NCBI GenBank assembly: GCA_017499595.2
Contig: CM039006.1
Coordinates: 806,001 to 870,000, forward strand
DNA: 64,000 nt
Origin: Psilocybe cubensis
Lineage: Eukaryota
Direction: 5' to 3'
Of the stretch, positions 11,864 to 61,265 are shown piece by piece. Every line of letters starts with the position of its first letter. Position 1 is the first letter of the stretch. The notes below the pieces were generated by a model. It saw only the letters and a program-made list of their open reading frames with translations, had not been told where the DNA came from and searched no databases. A program made the translations under genes and the position numbers.

Positions 11864-13408
11864 ATGTCCGAAATAAGTGAGCCCCTCAATACTGCCCTTT
11901 TTTGAGCTGGTTGTTTATATACTGTCGGGTACAAGATTATAGCCTTTTTGGAGGAGCTGAAAGTCTTGATGAAGGCAGAACACCCCCCTCCAAGTTCAAC
12001 AGGGCACCACGACGGACATTCGCTGTCAACGAAGGAGATGAGAGTGTCAGAGACGAGTATGCATATACTGCACTTCCTCAGGACCCAAAGGACTTTCTAT
12101 GGTTGATGACGGAAGAACCACATCGTTCACGAAGGATGGCCATCATGAGGGCACACCCAGAGGTGCAGTCGAAATGTTTTGTGGGAGCGTCGCATTGCTA
12201 ACGGACACGTCAAACCAGGTCACCAAGCTCATGGGCCGCGAACCCCTGACAAAATACGTTGTACTCTTCGTCGTGTCCCTACAAGTGACCATTGCCATCC
12301 TTATGCGACACCACTCACCCCTCTCTCCCTTATTCATCTTCCTTGCTTACGCGATTGGGGGCACCGCTAATCACAATCTGTTCCTTGCTATCCACGAAAT
12401 CACGCACAACCTCGCCTTTCGCAGGATAGCACCAAACAAGATATTGGCAATTTTTGCCAATTTACCCATTGGCATTCCTTATTCAGCTGCGTTCAAGGTG
12501 TGTACGCAGTTAGGTTGCCTGAACAAGCACTGGAGACTGGAATAATGCATTTCAGGGATATCACATCGAACACCACAAATTCCTCGGCCAGGATGGCATC
12601 GATACGGACTTACCCACGAGGCTTGAGATTATTTGCCTCAACAACGTATTGGGAAAAGTGTTCTTTGCGTACGTGTCTAAGCGAACTAGCATTTCGAGAA
12701 TATTTTCACTAACTAACTGCGCGTTCCACATACAGGACATTCCAAATTCTCTTTTATGCCCTCCGGCCGACCTTTGTTCGTGCCCAGACTTTGACCTATT
12801 GGCACTTCCTCAACATCTTGGCTCAAGTAGTCTTCGACTACATGCTCGTCTCAACCTTTGGGACGAGGCCACTAATTTACCTCATCATGAGTAGCTTTTT
12901 TGCAGGGAGCTTGCATCCGTGTGCTGGCCACTTTATTGCAGAGCATTACCTTTGGGATGGTCTTGAGCAAGAGACATACAGTTACTATGGACCGTTAAAT
13001 ATCCTGGCTTATAATGTACGCCTGTCACTTCGTATTCACTAATGTTCATCCTAAACTCGTTTTACACAGGTCGGATATCATAACGAGCACCATGACTTCC
13101 CATCTATACCTTGGACACGCCTCCCAGCTTTGAAAGCTCTTGCCCCTGAATTTTACGATACTATACCTTCACATCCCTCCTGGCCCATGGTCATTGTGAA
13201 TTTCATTCGTGATAAAGAAGTTGGTATCTTCGCGCGTGCTAAGAGAATCGGCAAAGGACGAAGAATTGAAATCAGTGTTGCTGGCGGCCCTGGTGCAACG
13301 TCAGGCATCTCATGCAGTAAAATTGTCGACCTGGATGATGAAGCCATAGATCAAGAAATCGAATCGAGCTCGGAGGGGGATTTGACCGAGTCGGATAAAA
13401 GCGAGTAG
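11864..13408 (+). CDS. DES1: Sphingolipid (dihydroceramide) delta-4 desaturase
   Basis: N-terminal DFLWLMTEEPHRSRRMAIMRAHPEV. His boxes HEITH, HIEHH and HNEHH. Motifs SLHPCAGHFIAEHY and ETYSYYGPLN. Consistent GT-AG introns. Confidence 0.93.
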
Positions 13409-13849
13409 ATGCTGGGATTAGACGCAAAATACCCTACTAATTTGTGAGTATCATTCCTTGTATCTCTATTTGATTCTGAAAATTCCTTGTAATGCGCTCG
13501 GTCTCAGTTCACCTTTCGACCTTCGTTTCTTTGATTTGGGTGTTAACTATGGGTATTAACTCTAAGTTATTGACAGATGACGCGCGTTTTCAAAGTTATA
13601 AAATTCAATACATTACAAGCGTGTTAAATGCACCGATGTAAATGCATTAAAATAAATCAAGACTCCTGATCTTCAAGTTTAATCAACGAGTGCGAAAGTC
13701 GGTCATCTCCAGTTGGATTCCGAGTCAGCAATCAGTACGGTTACATGATTCTAGCAGATTGAATGGATTATTATAAATTATATATCCGCCGGATAAATCT
13801 GTCCGCCGGACAGCACGTGACCCACGTGACCACCGCGGTGGTCAGATTT

Positions 13850-14015
13850 GCCTGATTTAAGACACCACCGCGGTGGCATGATCAGGCAGCCATGTTCCAC
13901 CACCGCGGTGGCAGGATCAGGCAGCCATATTCCACCACCGCGGTGGCAGGATCAGGCAACCATATTCCACCACCGCGGTGGCAGGATCAGCCAACCTTGA
14001 GCCACCCCCGCAGTG
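13850..14015. repeat. 35-bp tandem repeat with palindromic core CCACCGCGGTGG (~4-5 copies, decaying downstream)
   Basis: Unit CCACCACCGCGGTGGCAGGATCAGGCAGCCATATT read directly. Confidence 0.9.
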
Positions 14016-14787
14016 ATTGACAACATCCAGCGGATTTCACCACTGGGTTGGAGGTCCAACAGATGTCAGGCCCGCCACTGTGGTTATGGCACAAAGCAGG
14101 CGTACACCACCACTCCAGTGATAGCCACTGACATGTTTATTCCGCCACCTCAGGGCTAACCATGATTATGTTGGCACAACCACTGAGGTTCTGGCAGGCA
14201 ACACCTTTCCCCTAGCATAGCAGTGGCTTATCTCCCCTTTGTGTGAATCACCAAGGTGGATGTCTCACAAATACATGTTGTAGCAGTTCACCACACGCTT
14301 CCAAGACACGGTAATTCCATTCACCTTAGATAACATATTTCACTGCACTGTTGTATCAATGTACACGATGAATTAACAGATTTCTACCCAAACATGTCAA
14401 AAATCTTTTATAAATATCACTACCATCACTCCAGTGGTGGATCTACACAAGTAATTCTCACCACAACAACGTCAACAAAGATAAATATATATATATAAAA
14501 TTGCTTTGACATCAGCATATCACCAAGTACCAGCCTTAGCATTTAGCTGGTGACGACTGGACAAGAGACTTGAAACTCCTCGTTTTCACATCGTCTCTAT
14601 CCCTTTCCTAACTAACAAAGTCGTCGAAGATGAGAGTTTAGCCTATTATTTATGTCCATGCTTGTTTACTACATAGTGCATTCCGTACATACAACTTCCC
14701 CCGGCTTGAGCCTTTGCACACACCCTGCTGATACCTCATGTGTCGGTTGGGGTGTTCCCTCACAAGAACCCTCCCTGGTTCTACCAG

Positions 14788-14970
14788 CATATCCCAGGAA
14801 AATGTTGAGATCAGGAAAATGCTGATGTCATCGCTGTGACCTCATCATATCCCTGGAATATGATGAGGTCACAGCGTTGACCTCATCATATCAAAAATGT
14901 TGAGGTCAGGAAAATGCTGATGTCACCGCTGTGACCTCATCATATCCCAGGAATATGATGAGGTCACAGC
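14788..14970. repeat. Duplicated ~95-bp unit, each copy containing an ~18-bp-stem hairpin
   Basis: GCTGTGACCTCATCATAT-7 nt-ATATGATGAGGTCACAGC at 14833-14875 and again at 14928-14970. Confidence 0.85.
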
Positions 14971-15199
14971 CATTACGCGTGCCTATTTTTGCCATCAGTC
15001 GGGGTACCCTACCCTAAAGTGTTGAGTACGTATGCCGACCTCTGACTTATGACTTTTTCTTTTCCCTCAACATTATATCATAGGGGCACACTAAGTATAC
15101 ACTACAGTTAGAGTATAATCCAGTATAATAGTTTAGTATACGTTACAAAGAATAATACCACTCCGGTTTAAAGTTAAAAGAAGTAAAATGGATTCCAAC

Positions 15200-16480
15200 A
15201 CAAGTGAGTAACTGCCAAAAAAAAGGTGTATGCTGGAATAATCCCAATGGAATAATCCCAAAAGCAGACACCCCTACCCGCTGCCAGTTCCTACGAATTA
15301 AGGAATACACATTTTTGACAAGGGTGGTATTCAAACCATTTGCGCATCATATACAGCAAGGACACCCCTTGTATGTAAGTAATTTTAACCATTAATCACC
15401 TTTGCAAAGCTTAATAACAAGCGCCCTCAGTCTCTCTCCCAGCGGATTGAAATGTACGAAACTTATTTAATCAGGGACAGCAATACAAACACTGCCAACA
15501 CGCGTTACCTGTTGGAATATCATGGGTCAAACATGGAGCCGCCACGGAAGGGTCCTTGCTACGACCTTGCCACTACTGCATTGGCACAGTATCGCCTAAT
15601 AGACCAGGTTTGCATGACCCCTTCTGTAATGGGTTTAAATGGAATTTTGCCTGTCAATGTGAATGCAGCAAAGTCCCGCTCTTGGACAGAACAAATGGTT
15701 CAAGGTTTCAAGGTAAAATCCTTGTGCGAAGGAAATATATTCCATTGCTCACCAATGCTGTACCATACTACAGGGTTGGGACAAACTATGAAACTGGCCG
15801 TCTACACTCAAGACTGCCAGAGAAACTTTGATAAATTACTGCGAGAGAACAACAGCAACACAAACACCAGCAAGCGCGTCAATGGCCATCAGGTTATTGT
15901 TAGCCTTGGCTCAAACAAATGTGTCGAGAAATTATTCAAACATAATCGGTAACTTTGAAGCGGCAGCCCTGCATCTAGCGGCTTTAATGGAAATGGATGG
16001 CGAACAGTTGCACCCACCAAATATGGAGAATGACCTGGCAGTCGTGTTGCAAAGGCTGAGCAACAACGATCGCACTCTGCCTATCCATGGTCAGGTCCAA
16101 GCACTTCTGACAAAATAGTGGAGTCGTAATGTCCGCGTACCTCTGCAGCTCGCGTTGCTGATCTCCCTGCTTTACCTCTTCAACACTACTTGTCTGTACA
16201 AAAGGGCCGTGAGCCAGGTTGACTTGTGGCAAATATGCGTATCCTCAGGGAATGACAAACCGGCCCTATTAATCAAGGTAGAAACAGCGGTGTGGAGTGC
16301 AATTTGAAACATAGCCCGTCATGGGGACGCAGTCTAGGAGCTTATCAAATTAGTTTCATCACCAGAATGGATGCAGTGGGAATGTACACCTTTAGGACAT
16401 GTTGCAGTCCGTTATTTTGATTGTAAATGCCCGACAGTAACGGCTTGGGAACCTTCGTTGAAACCCAGGTTGGTGGGAAA
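15200..16480 (+). pseudogene. Decayed coding sequence of unknown family inside the TIR element
   Basis: Consecutive protein-like segments (15452-15952, then 15950-16440) are interrupted by a frame change and in-frame stops (e.g. LLTK*WSRNVRVPLQLALLIS). No DDE motif recognised. Confidence 0.4.
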
Positions 16481-46759: not shown

Positions 46760-48567
46760 CTAGAAGATCGCGAACGTCGCGAAAGTGTCTTCTTCCTCTT
46801 CGGCGCAGTCCAGGTATCCTGGAGAGTCTGGAATGTGATATAGAGTAAGCAAAGACAAATATTGATTCGAGGAGATTGAATTTATTTAAATGAAACGCAC
46901 CGGCAGTGTCGCATGGTCTGACTTCCACCACCCTCTCGCTGCCCTCCTCGGAGTCTGCGGCGTACTGGCATCCGCTCGGTAGAGGTGTAGCCTGCAGCCC
47001 GTCGGCCAACGCAGCGCGCAGCGCCTCGTTGCCTGCGACGAACCACTTCATCTTCCTCAGATTTGCGAATTTGGCCGTTGTACCACTTTCTCTGCGCTCA
47101 TCGTCATCGTCATCGTCGCGGTCGCGTCGGTCGAGCATGTGGACCCTTATACGCTGTGCAGCCTCGCGTATATCCGTCGCCGTCTTCCACTCGCCCACAT
47201 CAAGCTTGACAGACACTTCGTCAAGCAGACCATGCGTCGCCGGCTCGAGCTGCGCGAGCACATTCGGGATAAAGTTCTTGAAGTTATTGAAGAGAATCAT
47301 CGCAGCGCCCGTCTTCTTCTGCCGGGGCCGGCACATGGCGAGGCGGAGCGTGCGCAGGTTGTGCAGGGCGCTGACGTCGAGCGGGGATGTGACGGCATCG
47401 TGATTGACGCCGATGGCTAGTACGTGGGGGTGGCAACAGATTAATATTAATATTCGTGATCAACATTCAACAACGTAACCATCGCCGCGTCCACGCTCGG
47501 ACAGTCGGCGGAAAAAAAAGAAGGTAGGCAGAAAACAGTGAACATACACACACACCTTGAACTTCCAGACGGCAGCAGAATGTGCGTAGGGAGTCTGCGC
47601 ATTCGCTGAGCAGCGCGTTGATCCCGCCGTGCGTGCTGTACTGCTTGGGCATCGTCAGCGACATGTGCTGCACGCTTGAGATGTCGAGCGGACAGTCGTC
47701 GTTCGTCGCCCACTGTGCGAACGCGTGGAACGCGGGCTCGGCTAGCTCGAGCCTGAGCATCTTCAGCGGCCGCCGCTGGGACTGCAGGACCGAATCTCTG
47801 GGTCGTCTCTGCGCCTGTGCCGCCGCCGACGCATCCCAATCGACAGTCTCCCCTCCCGTGCCGCCGCCTTCAAGCGCGCCGCTGAATGTGACGTCCTCAA
47901 GAACCAGACCTTCCAGAAGCGGACATCCCGCGAGCGCCAGTACCGAAAGCGGGATGCCGCGCATGTGCGCTAGACGGATGTGAACGAGCGACTGTGAGCG
48001 GAACGCGGTGCGAAGCTCATTGCGCACGGCGCTGGGAATAAAGCTCCACGAGACCGGCCAGATATAACCTTTGGGACGTATCCCCGGTTCAGAGACGCTG
48101 CTGGTGGTGGGGCAGGGGATCGCTGTCGTAACCGAGGTGGTGGTGGAGCTGATGACGCTGTTAAGTCTTCCGCCACCGCCGCCGCTGCTGCCACTAGTAG
48201 TGCTTCCGCGCCCAAGGTTGATGCCCCGCAGGTGCCTGAGCAAGGGGAGGCAGACTTGCAGGATTTCGGTGAGCCGGTGCAGGTCCTGGTCCTCCATCCC
48301 GTGGGCGATGACGATGGAGAGCTCCCGCACATACGCGGAGATGCGTGGCGAAGAGAGAAGCAACTGGCAGAATCTGTCGGGTGGATTGGCCTGGGAAGGG
48401 AACGGGACGTGGCGGAAATCGAGCTGGACCTTCGCGAAGAGGTATCTCTGCGTGCTGTACACCCAGCGATGGCAGGTCAGAGCGCATGATCTCAGAGATG
48501 GGATGTCGTCCTTGAGGTAGCTGAGAATGTGCTGCTCCAACTCCACTGGCAATGCTTCACAGGGCAT
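46760..48567 (-). CDS. F-box-like domain protein with LRR-like C-terminal region (3 exons)
   Basis: N-terminal LPVELEQHILSYLKDDIPSLRSCALTCHRW...QRYLF is the typical agaric F-box. Repeated LxxLxL segments. Introns GTGTGT...TAG and GTGCGT...CAG; last exon DSPGY...FAIF*. Confidence 0.75.
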
Positions 48568-49626
48568 GATGGGCCAAGAATTGGCAAGCCGGACACTGAG
48601 AAAATCCTGCAAAACCGAAACTGCCAAGTGCTTTTAGAGGTGTTTAGACGCCCGCTCAGTCAAAAGAGCTGGTACGACGACCGGGAAACTCACAGGTGTC
48701 CCGTCGTCCTTCAAGGATCGAGGTTTGGAACAGGTTGGCTTGAGTGGTTGACGGTGAAGGTGAACCCGTGTAGAGCTTGTTTAAGTATTCGTTATCAATC
48801 TATATGGGGCAGACGGTGGAAGTGTGCAAGCGAGCTCGCTGTCCACAAAGACTTTGAAGGGATTGATCTTCCTTTTCACACGAACCACTAGCGTCGCCGG
48901 AGTAGCGGGTTTGTTCTCAAAATACACTATCAGAAGTACAAGGCGCCTAGACTCCATCACCACGGATACAACGCAAGGTAAGCTGCCTCCCACATCCAGA
49001 AAAATTACCATAACTCGGACACTATCATGTTAATATCATGTTAATCATCAACAAATGGTGCAATATACCAGTAATCTGGTTAACATTCCAGTCGTTGTTA
49101 GTGAGACTAACATATAGCCTGTCGTGGACTCGTGATTCGTCAGATGGCAGAGTAAAAACTGGCCGCGATGAAAGTTTGCAGATTTATAACGACATTAACG
49201 GGGCTTACTTGGTGGTCACTGCAGCTGCTTACGGTGGTTTACGGGATGATTTCTACTTTCAATCGGCCCGTGTCGTTTCCCTGGCGAATTTTGAACCTGG
49301 TGCCGTCATCCAGGAACAAGCCTAGAGCAGCGCCAAATTTTAGAGTCAAATCATCTCGTGTGAAGGGAAATAAAAAGTCATCATCGTTTGCCAACTTGAA
49401 GAGTTGTTTGCTGTACAGAATACTCTGAGCATCATATCGACGTCACAGCGCTCAGACCACCAATAAGTGTTAACGGGGAACATCAGCAACTCTGAATTAT
49501 CGTCAAACCGAGTGGGGGCAGGCTTTATTTCAGCTGAAAAGCTGGATCACAGTACACTGAGACCATTCGGTTCCAAAATTGAAGTTTGTGTGTACATGAA
49601 GCTGAATTCGGGGAGTAAATTCTGGC

Positions 49627-51037: not shown

Positions 51038-53622
51038 TGTTGGTGATGAAAGAAAAGGCACAACGTCTTTCGCTGTTTCATGAGAGTCAAACCTCCTTCA
51101 AATAGGGCCAAAAGTGATCACGGGAGGACATCTTTAAGACAGTGTTGCAGAATATGTGGGGCTGAAACACGGTGTAGGTCTTGGTTGTTTGCTACGCACG
51201 CTAGCAGGAGTCGTCAAACGAGGACGGATCCGTTGTTCAAACTGGGTAGAGGTCAATCCACAGTATTTGTTGGAGCAGTGCTGTGAAGAGGAGAGCTAAC
51301 CTGTGGAATTGTTCCCATTAGATCTGACTCGAGATTCAGAAATAGAATCGTACGTTTTCCAATAGTAAAACATGACCTTCCTAGTTGCTCTTCCCCGTTC
51401 GCAGAGCATATTTTGATGAGTTCCTGTGTCCATACTAAAATATAACGTTCATTTTACACGATGTCGAAGCGTTTCAACATCGTTCTTACCATGAATGACT
51501 GCGTGGTTCTAGGAGTAGTGGATATAGTGAAACATGAGACAATACGCTATTTCCTCCGTTCACTGCAATATACTGACCATCTTCTATGGCAATTCATCTG
51601 GGGCAGCACATTATAGGTCCCTTTCCAGAATGTTTATCATATTCCGGATTAAAAATGGAGGACCTATGTGGAATTCCAGAGATAACGGTAAGTGTTGAAG
51701 GAAATAGATCCAGAATCTTTGTGTCGAACAGGTGCATACAGGTCCCAAATGTTAAATTCTGTCTTGGAGTCGATGCTTCTCCCGAGTTTGAAGAAGATCA
51801 GTCAAGTTGGGATGTTCATCACTTGAGAAATCTTTTATCAAAATATTTTTGCAACTTTTGTTGACGGGAGGGAAGCGTTTGCGCATTTTTGGCGCAGTAA
51901 CCACGAGGAAGCCATACGCGAGGCCTGATCCAACGACAGCAATGACTGATATATCAGATGTGTTGCTCAGTTCCGCTGAAGGGGAAAATTAATGTCGACA
52001 GGACGTACCCGGCTCCTACGTTGACTAAACCGGGGCATAGGTAAGTTTGGAAGGACATAGATTATTCCCCACAACTGACGTATCTGCGGATCGTCTTCAT
52101 TCCTCCAGAACCTGTTTGGCAGGAAACACGTGGTTTTCGGGTCTTTACACAGTCGAACCGAGCGTGTCAATTTCCGTCTGTCAGATAAAACGGCGATCTA
52201 CACCTTCGAGAACAGCTTGCGGAAATATCCACGTACTTCGCAGTTCTAACCATTTTATAGAAATATAATTGCTGCATCTTCAAGCACTGAAGGACTGTTG
52301 AATAGTGAAGATGGCTCGAATATGAGGGGTGATGTTGGTGTATTCTGTTCCCATGAACAATTGGCTGACATAGGGGTGGATAAGTTGAAATCTTGGATAT
52401 GTCGAGGCAGATGGATGTCCAAAATTGATATCATGGTGAACTCAAATGAATAGCATGTCGCGTCTGACTTCTCGATAGGGACATTGTACTCGTAGGTGCT
52501 GTCGGCCCTGTAGTGCTATTTTTTGGAAGGCGGAAGAAAACAACATCTGCTACGATGATGACATACGATGATTCAATGCTGATACTAGAAAGTGGAGAGG
52601 ACCTATTTCTTTATAACCGCTGCGCATGAAAAATAAACGGAGGAATGGGTTGACGAACAAAGCAGACTGGCAGGTTTGTGGCAGGCAAACCGCAACAAGC
52701 AGGCAAGGTAGCAGGCAAGGTCAGAGAAGTGACAGGCTGGTCACATCGTGATGAAGCCAAAACAAGTTAAATAACACCTAGCACGACGGACTTTTAAATT
52801 TTACTAACGGTTGAGCGTTCCTTCGATCGCCAGACTTGTCACTCGCCATCGCCAGCGTTTGGTTAAGTATAGGAGCCCCTGGGTCACCAACTTTACGATG
52901 TCCGATGCCTGTCTGAGCAATTCTCGGTGATTTTGCGGCCATCGACGGCATCAACATCGAAATTGAGCTCCGACACATCATACGGCGGTTCCCGACCCGC
53001 GACTTTTCTGGTTTGACACACACACACTGTGACGTGCCACACAATGCTCTGGCAATTCTCGGGAGAGAATTCCAGTATAGCGACAGGTTTACTCGTAATT
53101 CACATTGACGTATGGTCAATACAGCACCATTGAAGCCAATATATGATAGCATATTTGTTCTTGGTAGACAGCCTAAATCAATCCTCTTGTTGGGATGATA
53201 AGTTGTATGGAAAGCCAGACTGATCTGCTCAATGTTTGGCTCATGCCGCGTGATGGCCTTTGTAAATTAAACAATAAATAAATAAATAGTCAATTTGCCT
53301 TATAAATCAAGGCGTATCACGGTGTCACCGTGACTGATTAAATATTTGTTCGGTACTGAACGTGTAGAGCACAACTCGCTGCAGAGTACTTTCAGTATTG
53401 TTCACGTACCTTCACATTTTTGCTACTATAAATTACTTTTAATAATTAAGAACCAAATCTCCCGCCCTATGGAAACCCATAGAACTTTAGAACATTGATA
53501 TCAATTTGAAATTTCAAGACAGGAGCAGGTGAATAGGAGTCCATTGAACCGTTGGACGACTTGGACACTTTTATTCCTTAACCATTTCCACGATTATCCT
53601 GCTTTATTCACCATTTGCTATT

Positions 53623-60191: not shown

Positions 60192-61265
60192 TGATTTTAA
60201 TGCAAAAAGAATAGTAGAGACGGCGCTGAGTAGGGATTTTCAATTGTCCCCCTATCACGATGAGAAACAAGGTAGGAAAATATATTTCATTCAGAATAGG
60301 AGTCTACGGATAACACAAGCATGTTTTAGCTAGACGTTAGCAGGATCGGCCATCACGCGGCATGAGCCAAACATTGAGCAGATCAGTCTGGCTTTCCATA
60401 AAGTTGAAGTTAAGGATTGTGTCTACGAGTTATATAATGTGTCGTAGTTGGACTTTGTTTTCCTGGAGTCTTATTCTTCCATCGTAAATATTCTTTCTAG
60501 ATATTTTCCCAGTTCCGCGTTCATTGGTTGTTGTGCATCGAAGTATTAGGGTTTGTCGGAATTTTCAGAATAGCCTTTCAAGGGCCGAAATGCCGATAAG
60601 GCGCCGGCAGCCTTGCAATTTGAAAGGTCGTCTACTTAAGAGGGAGCTTACCTTACAATGTTGCGCCTTATGAAGAATAAATTAGTCCTACAAGGAATTC
60701 TGTGTCTTATAAGAATGATATACATTACAAGGGTGTTTGAGTATTACAAGGGCATTTCACTATTATAAGACGAAGTAGCATTAGCAAGAAAAGTAAGGGC
60801 CATGTAAGCTTGCACTGACCTTATGATGAATCGCTCTACCTCAACCTTACCTTTCGAAATTATTGCACAAGACGGGATTGGAACGCTCGCATACCTTGTA
60901 ACTAGAGCCAAACTTACCACTACACCAAGAAGACGTACTTAAAATAGCAAATTAATTACTCTCAACCCTTCATTTGACCGTCAGGACTCTGAATCGTAGA
61001 TTGTTGTATTTGAAGTAGCGACGGCAGCTCTAAGTAACCGTTCTGTTCAGCGGCTTTATCGACCTATAGAGCGTGCTTTGGAGCAATAAGAAACATGTTT
61101 ATAAAGCAACTATACTATTTCTAATATAATTGCAACTTGAATCTGGCAAAGAAGTGACAAGCATGCGAGTTGAATCGCCTAGTATACAAGTTAAGAGATG
61201 TTAAATGTAACGAGTCAAATGAGAAATAGCACATATCAGGCACAAAAAAAATACTATCAAGGTCT

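Follow-up and report, generated by a model that had tools for sequence, protein, structure and literature searches.

Whether the alpha-kinase gene carried by a DNA transposon of Psilocybe cubensis is a passenger picked up at a single copy or an inherited part of the transposon lineage is the question raised by the locus described here. The locus lies in a stretch of 64,000 nucleotides (nt) on contig CM039006.1 of assembly GCA_017499595.2 (forward-strand positions 806,001 to 870,000), and this whole stretch is called the window below. The evidence makes it highly probable that the element is a complete, apparently autonomous 7.2-kb cut-and-paste DNA transposon of the IS3EU (IS3EU/GingerRoot) superfamily and, jointly with this, that its kinase is a co-inherited gene kept under selection.

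Including its target-site duplications, the element spans 53200-60406 of the window. The left duplication, AAGTTG (53200-53205), is identical to the right one (60401-60406). The terminal inverted repeats, each 53 bp long, follow directly inside, with the left arm (53206-53258, plus strand) starting with TATGG and the right arm (60348-60400, minus strand) ending with CCATA; the two arms are 100% complementary. Only two sites in the window match a 29-nt piece of this repeat, and two matches were obtained in 0 of 100 shuffles. No further copy or fragment of the element was found elsewhere in the window. Between the ends, the kinase gene on the plus strand and the transposase gene on the minus strand are convergent and intact, and no internal stops remain after splicing. 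In print, IS3EU elements are diagnosed by target duplications of 6 bp in combination with termini TAYGG..CCRTA and ends of more than 30 bp (PMC12730594), or by 6-bp duplications and TA..TA termini (PMC10045372). All of these published marks are matched by AAGTTG, TATGG..CCATA, the perfect 53-bp ends and the integrase-like DDE (Asp-Asp-Glu) core of the transposase.

The transposase gene (58460-60191, minus strand) has an open frame supported by homologues and encodes 463 amino acids in 7 exons (60191-60167, 60106-59992, 59934-59758, 59701-59427, 59370-59118, 59064-58896 and 58837-58460), with introns of 53-60 nt that are all GT-AG. When exon 4 was used as query, 120 relatives were recovered, and all of the named ones are from Agaricomycetes. 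The closest is the P. cubensis protein JR316_0010716 (P0002), which is 97% identical over exon 4 and identical at 453 of 463 positions over the full length. P0002 matches the Pfam family rva_4 ('Integrase core domain') with 30.2 bits against a cut-off of 26, and the window's own transposase exons, taken singly, gave no Pfam match. Candidate DDE residues are found on the minus strand in DQHDKW (59583-59566), TQSDPG (59356-59339) and NIKPE (59236-59222), and D146/D149, D206 and E247 are shared by all 28 relatives compared. The predicted structure of P0002 (predicted local distance difference test, pLDDT, 86) displays an RNase-H-like core together with small N-terminal helix-turn-helix domains. 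This core fold is matched by the HIV-1 intasome (Z 13.5), PFV integrase (13.4), IstA (13.2), TnsB (13.0) and MuA (9.7); a sequence profile of the transposase matched none of the solved structures.

The second gene encodes a predicted protein that keeps all residues expected of an active alpha-kinase. Its catalytic domain (55246-56378) contains GAFK (55401-55412), CIKQ (55476-55487), QHIQY, DFQG (55977-56051, split by an intron), TDPQ (56067-56078), GDGN (56172-56183) and HDCNKFC (56211-56231), all on the plus strand. The catalytic and zinc-site motifs of PF02816, namely the phosphate-binding Lys, DxQG, TDPQ, G-x-G-N and a His plus H-x-C-x3-C, are all present in the spliced protein; each residue is assigned the putative role known from work on MHCK A and TRPM7. 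Six homologues all keep GxFK, the Lys and D-x-Q-G, and GxFK and the Lys are nearly invariant across 67 relatives. Exon 9 alone matches Pfam Alpha_kinase (PF02816) at 30.6 bits against a cut-off of 21.3; 58 of the 67 longer relatives match the family as well. A profile of 35 kinase sequences also recovered solved alpha-kinases, with E-values of 6e-12 for the TRPM7 kinase, 2e-8 for eEF2K and 3.5e-8 for MHCK A. At E<=0.001 the exhaustive search returned 957 cluster representatives, of which 58 remained at E<=1e-30, so that, judged by such matches, the family is large.

Two further regions precede the catalytic domain, both on the plus strand. An N-terminal zinc ribbon of the form CxxC...CxxC (53686-53781) has four Cys that are invariant in 6 of 6 homologues, and the model of P0127, a homologue from Hebeloma, reaches pLDDT 76-92 there. 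It is followed by a conserved middle domain of ubiquitin-like appearance (54400-54895, the start being approximate) with the motif NIPVHIG at 54557-54577. The P0127 model contains three confident parts between long disordered linkers: the zinc ribbon (residues ~10-55), an alpha/beta domain (190-351, pLDDT >90) and the alpha-kinase domain (420-727). Structural comparison of this model gave Z 20.2 with TRPM7 (1ia9; root-mean-square deviation (rmsd) 8.1, 249 aligned), 19.0 with an Entamoeba alpha-kinase (4kuj; rmsd 3.1, 227 aligned), 18.3 with MHCK A (3lkm), 16.6 with eEF2K (7shq/9ocw) and 15.3 with ALPK1 (8zd3). Residues 214-337 resemble many ubiquitin-like domains at Z 6.4-7.7, values below 8 that may reflect a mere common arrangement, and the corresponding template-modelling (TM) scores in Atlas are 0.46-0.51. 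A ubiquitin-like (beta-grasp) nature of the middle domain is therefore only a lead from modelling and no assignment; with the exon of this domain as query, the P. cubensis protein was the only match. The protein is like the solved alpha-kinases in fold (Z 15.3-20.2), profile matches and conserved motifs, but differs from them in its zinc ribbon, its ubiquitin-like-looking domain, its disordered linkers and its being encoded by a transposon. The combination of zinc ribbon, ubiquitin-like-looking domain and alpha-kinase is possibly a new detail. A preliminary description of the window had named the perfect ends with their exact duplication, the two convergent spliced genes, the DDE transposase, the IS3EU assignment and the kinase motifs with an N-terminal zinc ribbon, and on all of these points it agrees with the present analysis.

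If the kinase is a gene of the lineage, it should recur in other insertions, as the preliminary description had proposed in speaking of a mobile kinase module, and this is what was found. An annotated gene pair of P. cubensis, the kinase JR316_0010715 (P0125) and the transposase P0002, has consecutive locus tags on one contig and is 97-98% identical to the pair in the window. Contigs of the public run X1 span the interior of the element and differ from the window at 6 positions over 53229-60400. Their depth is 23-26, compared with 22.6 in single-copy flank, and the 53-nt end forms a contig of its own at about double depth (39). The X1 junction contigs enter different flanks, and both give a new 6-bp duplication, ATGAGG; the X1 copy is therefore an independent insertion, the flank contigs being tied to the kinase-bearing interior by depth and parsimony only, because the ends exceed the assembler's word. 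The host DNA left of the element differs from X1 at 82 positions and by 32 gaps in 4.1 kb. Six differences in about 7.2 kb against a far more diverged flank indicate very recent movement. Additionally, the raw reads of run X11 have loose ends exactly at 53206 (12 reads) and at 60400 (54 reads, whose agreement of 0.52 corresponds to several flanks), and X11 depth over the element is ~1.3-1.5 times that of the flank. The element has been recently mobile, and evidence of recent mobility is possibly a new detail for these transposons.

The surroundings of the element are also variable. In runs X1 and X9 the flanking DNA at 52273-53200 and at about 60800-62000 is either missing or diverged by more than 5%, and in X11 this holds for the left side; more distant flanks are present. 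The element is located in a strain-variable stretch. An empty insertion site was not found in the runs compared (X1, X9 and X11). One X9 contig leaves the right end at 60364, continues into a shorter, diverged end that still finishes with CCATA, and then enters another flank, which suggests a related family or a variant end in that organism.

Relatives in metagenome contigs extend the comparison beyond P. cubensis. A scan for the kinase yielded 22 loci, and an IS3EU transposase was found by tblastn to adjoin the kinase in 10 of them, or in 10 of the 14 loci that have more than 1 kb beyond the kinase. The arrangement is convergent in L004, L007, L008, L009, L011, L019 and L021; in L014, L020 and L022 the transposase lies upstream of the kinase on the same strand. 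Among the 12 loci without a transposase match, 8 end less than 300 nt past the kinase. Two of the loci, L007 (5143 bp, duplication CATTGG) and L008 (5720 bp, duplication CACTCG), hold complete elements that have TATGG ends, an exact duplication each and 76-81% identity to each other. Together with ATGAGG in X1, these place the kinase in independent insertions with different target-site duplications, which had been proposed as a check. L006 and L021 are 97-98% identical to L007; the L006 copy (8612-11506, 97% identical) starts at element position 84, lacks the left inverted end, and is truncated or rearranged. Inverted ends were looked for in L019, L011, L014 and L022, and none were found. The tandem order also occurs in annotated gene models of Galerina marginata (1132 amino acids; P0073) and Mycena maculata (952 amino acids; P0129), in which transposase and kinase are fused; gene predictors merge the two genes of the tandem clade into single proteins. 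The existence of this second clade with a tandem transposase-kinase order is possibly a new detail.

One locus, L003, stands apart. Over residues 8-669 its kinase relative (within 10001-16316) shares 41% identity with the P. cubensis protein, and no IS3EU transposase was found within 10 kb on either side of the kinase. Two downstream open reading frames (ORFs), at 14978-15541 and 15480-16316, match NDC10_II and GCR1_C, a combination that is presumably typical of Crypton-type elements. L003 may show the kinase in another mobile setting, or the combination may be due to chance.

Recurrence of the pair was accompanied by parallel divergence of its two members. Over 13 pairs, distances between kinase domains and between transposases were correlated with r 0.77, and none of 5000 permutations gave as high a value. 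In both trees a single branch parts 5 tandem from 8 convergent elements (Shimodaira-Hasegawa-like approximate likelihood ratio test, SH-aLRT, 96 and 99), and the same inner pairs are recovered; these were quick trees made from BLAST-anchored columns, with some long branches. Selection was measured between L007 and L008 as the ratio of nonsynonymous to synonymous substitution rates (dN/dS; Nei-Gojobori method on tblastn-aligned codons). The kinase has a dN/dS of 0.18 over 656 codons, with 0.08 in the kinase core, 0.19 in the zinc-ribbon segment and 0.24 in the ubiquitin-like region, and the transposase has 0.25 over 484 codons. Some of the tblastn matches extend into introns, an effect expected to push the values up and not down. 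It can be seen from these comparisons of coding sequence that the kinase is inherited together with the transposase and is under purifying selection. The kinase is a long-standing accessory gene of the transposon lineage, not a passenger picked up at this copy. The preliminary description had suggested comparing the two phylogenies, which agree, and had regarded a kinase confined to this copy and evolving neutrally as fatal to its proposal; recurrence and a dN/dS of about 0.18 were found instead.

The preliminary description had also left open whether the pairing was catalogued, and it is already in print. Section 4.1 of Kojima 2025 (PMC12730594) states that the transposase and alpha-kinase genes of TET-carrying IS3EU families are opposed, and the accessible text of that paper does not analyse the kinase further. 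It was the only source found when the literature was searched for a link between IS3EU and alpha-kinases. The window element is like these families, as they are described in the accessible text, in its 6-bp duplication, its TAYGG..CCRTA termini, its ends longer than 30 bp, its DDE transposase and its opposed alpha-kinase. It is unlike them in having no TET/JBP gene between the two genes, where a 1.3-kb C-rich block is found instead, and its host is an agaric, whereas the TET-carrying hosts named in that text are rusts and Tuber. The element is therefore a new TET-less example, from Agaricales, of an already published transposase/alpha-kinase pairing, and the family tables of the same paper may already list an entry from Agaricales or Psilocybe. 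Alpha-kinases are also reported to be expanded in rust and smut genomes, and no link to transposons is made in the accessible text of these reports (PMC4469406, PMC5295586). The pairing is known but barely studied.

The kinase gene itself (53623-56378, plus strand) encodes 726 amino acids in 11 exons: 53623-53839, 53891-53959, 54020-54082, 54131-54477, 54536-54895, 54950-55015, 55068-55179, 55246-55615, 55682-55986, 56050-56092 and 56150-56378. Like that of the transposase, this model was built by hand and then checked by script; it is supported by the open frame, by intron ends, by homologues for exons 9-11 and by the Pfam Alpha_kinase match. The ten introns are 48-66 nt long, 9 of them GT-AG and 1 GC-AG. 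Removal of the GC-AG intron (55987-56049) is required for DFQG to be connected with the TDPQ exon, whose 43 nt code for GRTLLTDPQIITH. In the automatic P. cubensis model P0125 this exon is left out on account of the GC donor of the adjoining intron; the model further misses the stretch FIQRE behind LVYQ, and two more of its splice sites find no support among homologues. Since both the TDPQ exon and the FIQRE stretch are present in the homologues from Pholiota, Hebeloma, Galerina and Mycena, the model that includes them is preferred. Owing to similar skipping at the GC donor, database entries of this kinase family may often lack a catalytic motif. For the last intron, 56097-56135 (39 nt) was rejected and replaced by 56093-56149, and 56097-56149 (53 nt) was rejected because it broke the frame. 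The intron adopted is GT-AG, is 57 nt long, keeps the frame, and gives the same spacing from TDPQ to G-x-G-N as in the Hebeloma homologue.

Several points weigh against the conclusion that a functional kinase belongs to this lineage. The splice patterns of both genes are predicted from sequence and homologues and not from RNA, and the essential TDPQ exon depends on a GC-AG intron and is omitted by the automatic P. cubensis annotation. The folds predicted are those of the Hebeloma homologue P0127 and of P0002, in place of the spliced proteins of the window. Shared descent of the hosts would likewise lead to correlated distances and congruent trees. The dN/dS values come from two sister families in metagenome contigs and not from the window's own family. 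Four loci (L003, L015, L016 and L017) have 1.2-10 kb of flank and a kinase without a transposase. Also, the word kinase has 0 occurrences in the paper on plant and animal GingerRoot elements, and the kinase is therefore dispensable for DDE chemistry as such.

What the kinase does for the element can be approached from the expected course of transposition. By analogy with its family, the DDE transposase, with its N-terminal helix-turn-helix domains, would recognise the 53-bp ends and excise the element, and reinsertion with a 6-bp staggered cut would produce the AAGTTG duplication. The kinase could act for the element by phosphorylating either the transposase or, at the site of the element, a protein of the host, and the zinc ribbon and ubiquitin-like-looking domain might direct it to its target. 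Of the proposals for this step, a role in transposition itself is slightly favoured over one against silencing, and the remaining weight falls on other functions or on none. The spread of defence or signalling kinases, which the preliminary description had suggested beside regulation of transposition and counteraction of silencing, finds no support: nothing in the analysis favours a host defence or signalling role for the kinase.

The kinase may, as a tentative first choice, be a cofactor or regulator of transposition that phosphorylates the transposase or serves as an ATP-using partner controlling assembly or target choice. MuA, TnsB and IstA work with ATP-using partners, and MuB, TnsC and IstB would be the analogues of the kinase. 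The core fold of the transposase is closest to integrases, IstA, TnsB and MuA; moreover, the kinase is co-inherited with the transposase across two arrangement clades, is at least as strongly constrained, and is paired with it in other fungi too, as far as the accessible text of PMC12730594 goes. The likeness to MuA/MuB, to TnsB/TnsC of Tn7 and to IstA/IstB of IS21 consists of a transposase core fold plus a second nucleotide-binding protein from the same element, and it is one of layout only, for the partners in Mu, Tn7 and IS21 are AAA+ ATPases and the protein here is a protein kinase and no AAA+ ATPase. The silence of the GingerRoot paper about a kinase in plant and animal relatives, and the four informative loci with a kinase alone, also count against this role. 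A complex prediction for the transposase with kinase residues 1-350 carries no weight either way: its score of 0.32 lies just under the mark of 0.34, and one of the controls reached 0.33. It is conceivable, though improbable, that IS3EU transposition in fungi strictly requires the kinase as its second component, and that the kinase, as a switch dependent on phosphorylation or ATP, permits the transposase to act, in place of the AAA+ partners of Mu, Tn7 and IS21; the 'expanded alpha-kinase families' of rust and mushroom genomes would then be largely transposon genes.

The second proposal, in which the kinase is a counter-silencing or host-manipulating effector that phosphorylates chromatin or silencing proteins, in the class of the TET/JBP dioxygenases, is somewhat more doubtful. 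It draws attention to the 2081-nt spacer between the two stop codons (56379-58459), which contains no recognisable gene. Part of the spacer is a C-rich low-complexity block (56950-58260; GC 0.62, C 0.41) in which degenerate repeats of 50-64 nt occur, and the 10 ORFs of the spacer match no Pfam family at E up to 0.1, TET/JBP included. This block varies between copies, because it is present in X1 but almost uncovered in X11, whose reads have loose ends inside it; in L007 only ~430 nt separate the kinase and transposase matches. Chromatin can be a target of alpha-kinase domains, as in the reported action of the TRPM7 kinase fragment on histones, and the ubiquitin-like-looking domain and zinc ribbon could dock on host complexes. 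Fungal DNA transposons carrying TET/JBP were reportedly first described by Iyer and colleagues in 2014. In TET-carrying IS3EU families, according to the accessible text of PMC12730594, the TET/JBP gene sits between transposase and kinase, in the position that corresponds to this variable spacer, and TET/JBP is interpreted there as a means of evading silencing by methylation. The same text describes TET/JBP carriers among Kyakuja-Dileera-Zisupton and other elements, which are like the window element in having an extra enzyme gene presumed to serve the element. The enzyme differs, however, and TET/JBP genes are described there as moving between superfamilies; the kinase, by contrast, diverges in step with a single transposase lineage. 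Because of this co-divergence, the kinase suits a core part of the element better than swappable cargo, and a part in transposition is retained as the leading proposal.

It is unlikely that the element is intact merely through youth and is now silent, with the kinase not made in this strain. The DNA around it (52273-53200 and 60.8-62 kb) is lacking in other strains, as expected of repeat-rich, possibly silenced DNA. The perfect ends and the two intact genes point the other way, as do the 6 differences in about 7.2 kb of the X1 copy against 82 differences and 32 gaps in 4.1 kb of flank, and the several right-hand flanks in X11 (54 reads, agreement 0.52). No spliced contig derived from the element was found in X13, a single run presumed to be RNA, and this result is uninformative either way. 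Least credible of all is a one-time host capture inside this copy that now drifts neutrally, for although DNA transposons commonly capture host genes, the same pair recurs in P. cubensis, at another site in X1, at 10 metagenome loci (2 of them complete elements) and in the fused Galerina and Mycena models, the kinase has a dN/dS of 0.18, and the pairing is in print for other fungi (PMC12730594).

Outside the element, an X13 contig over 48001-48958 skips 48631-48693, a segment of 63 nt that reads CT..AC on the plus strand; it therefore represents a spliced transcript of a minus-strand gene. The ORF at 47467-48633 in this neighbouring, X13-covered gene has an F-box-like match.

For the fungi concerned, these results imply a likely annotation error of some scale. 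Alpha-kinases of this type in agarics are transposon genes that have been labelled as host 'alpha-type protein kinase' or as hypothetical proteins; some of the annotated models are mis-spliced, as in P. cubensis, where the TDPQ exon is missing, and others, in Galerina and Mycena, are run together with the transposase. Going by a sentence in PMC12730594, alpha-kinases of this type in rusts are probably transposon genes likewise. The Psilocybe element is young, complete and small, and so offers a convenient test object for the function of a transposon-borne alpha-kinase. The question that it frames is why a whole lineage of eukaryotic DNA transposons keeps a protein kinase under purifying selection.

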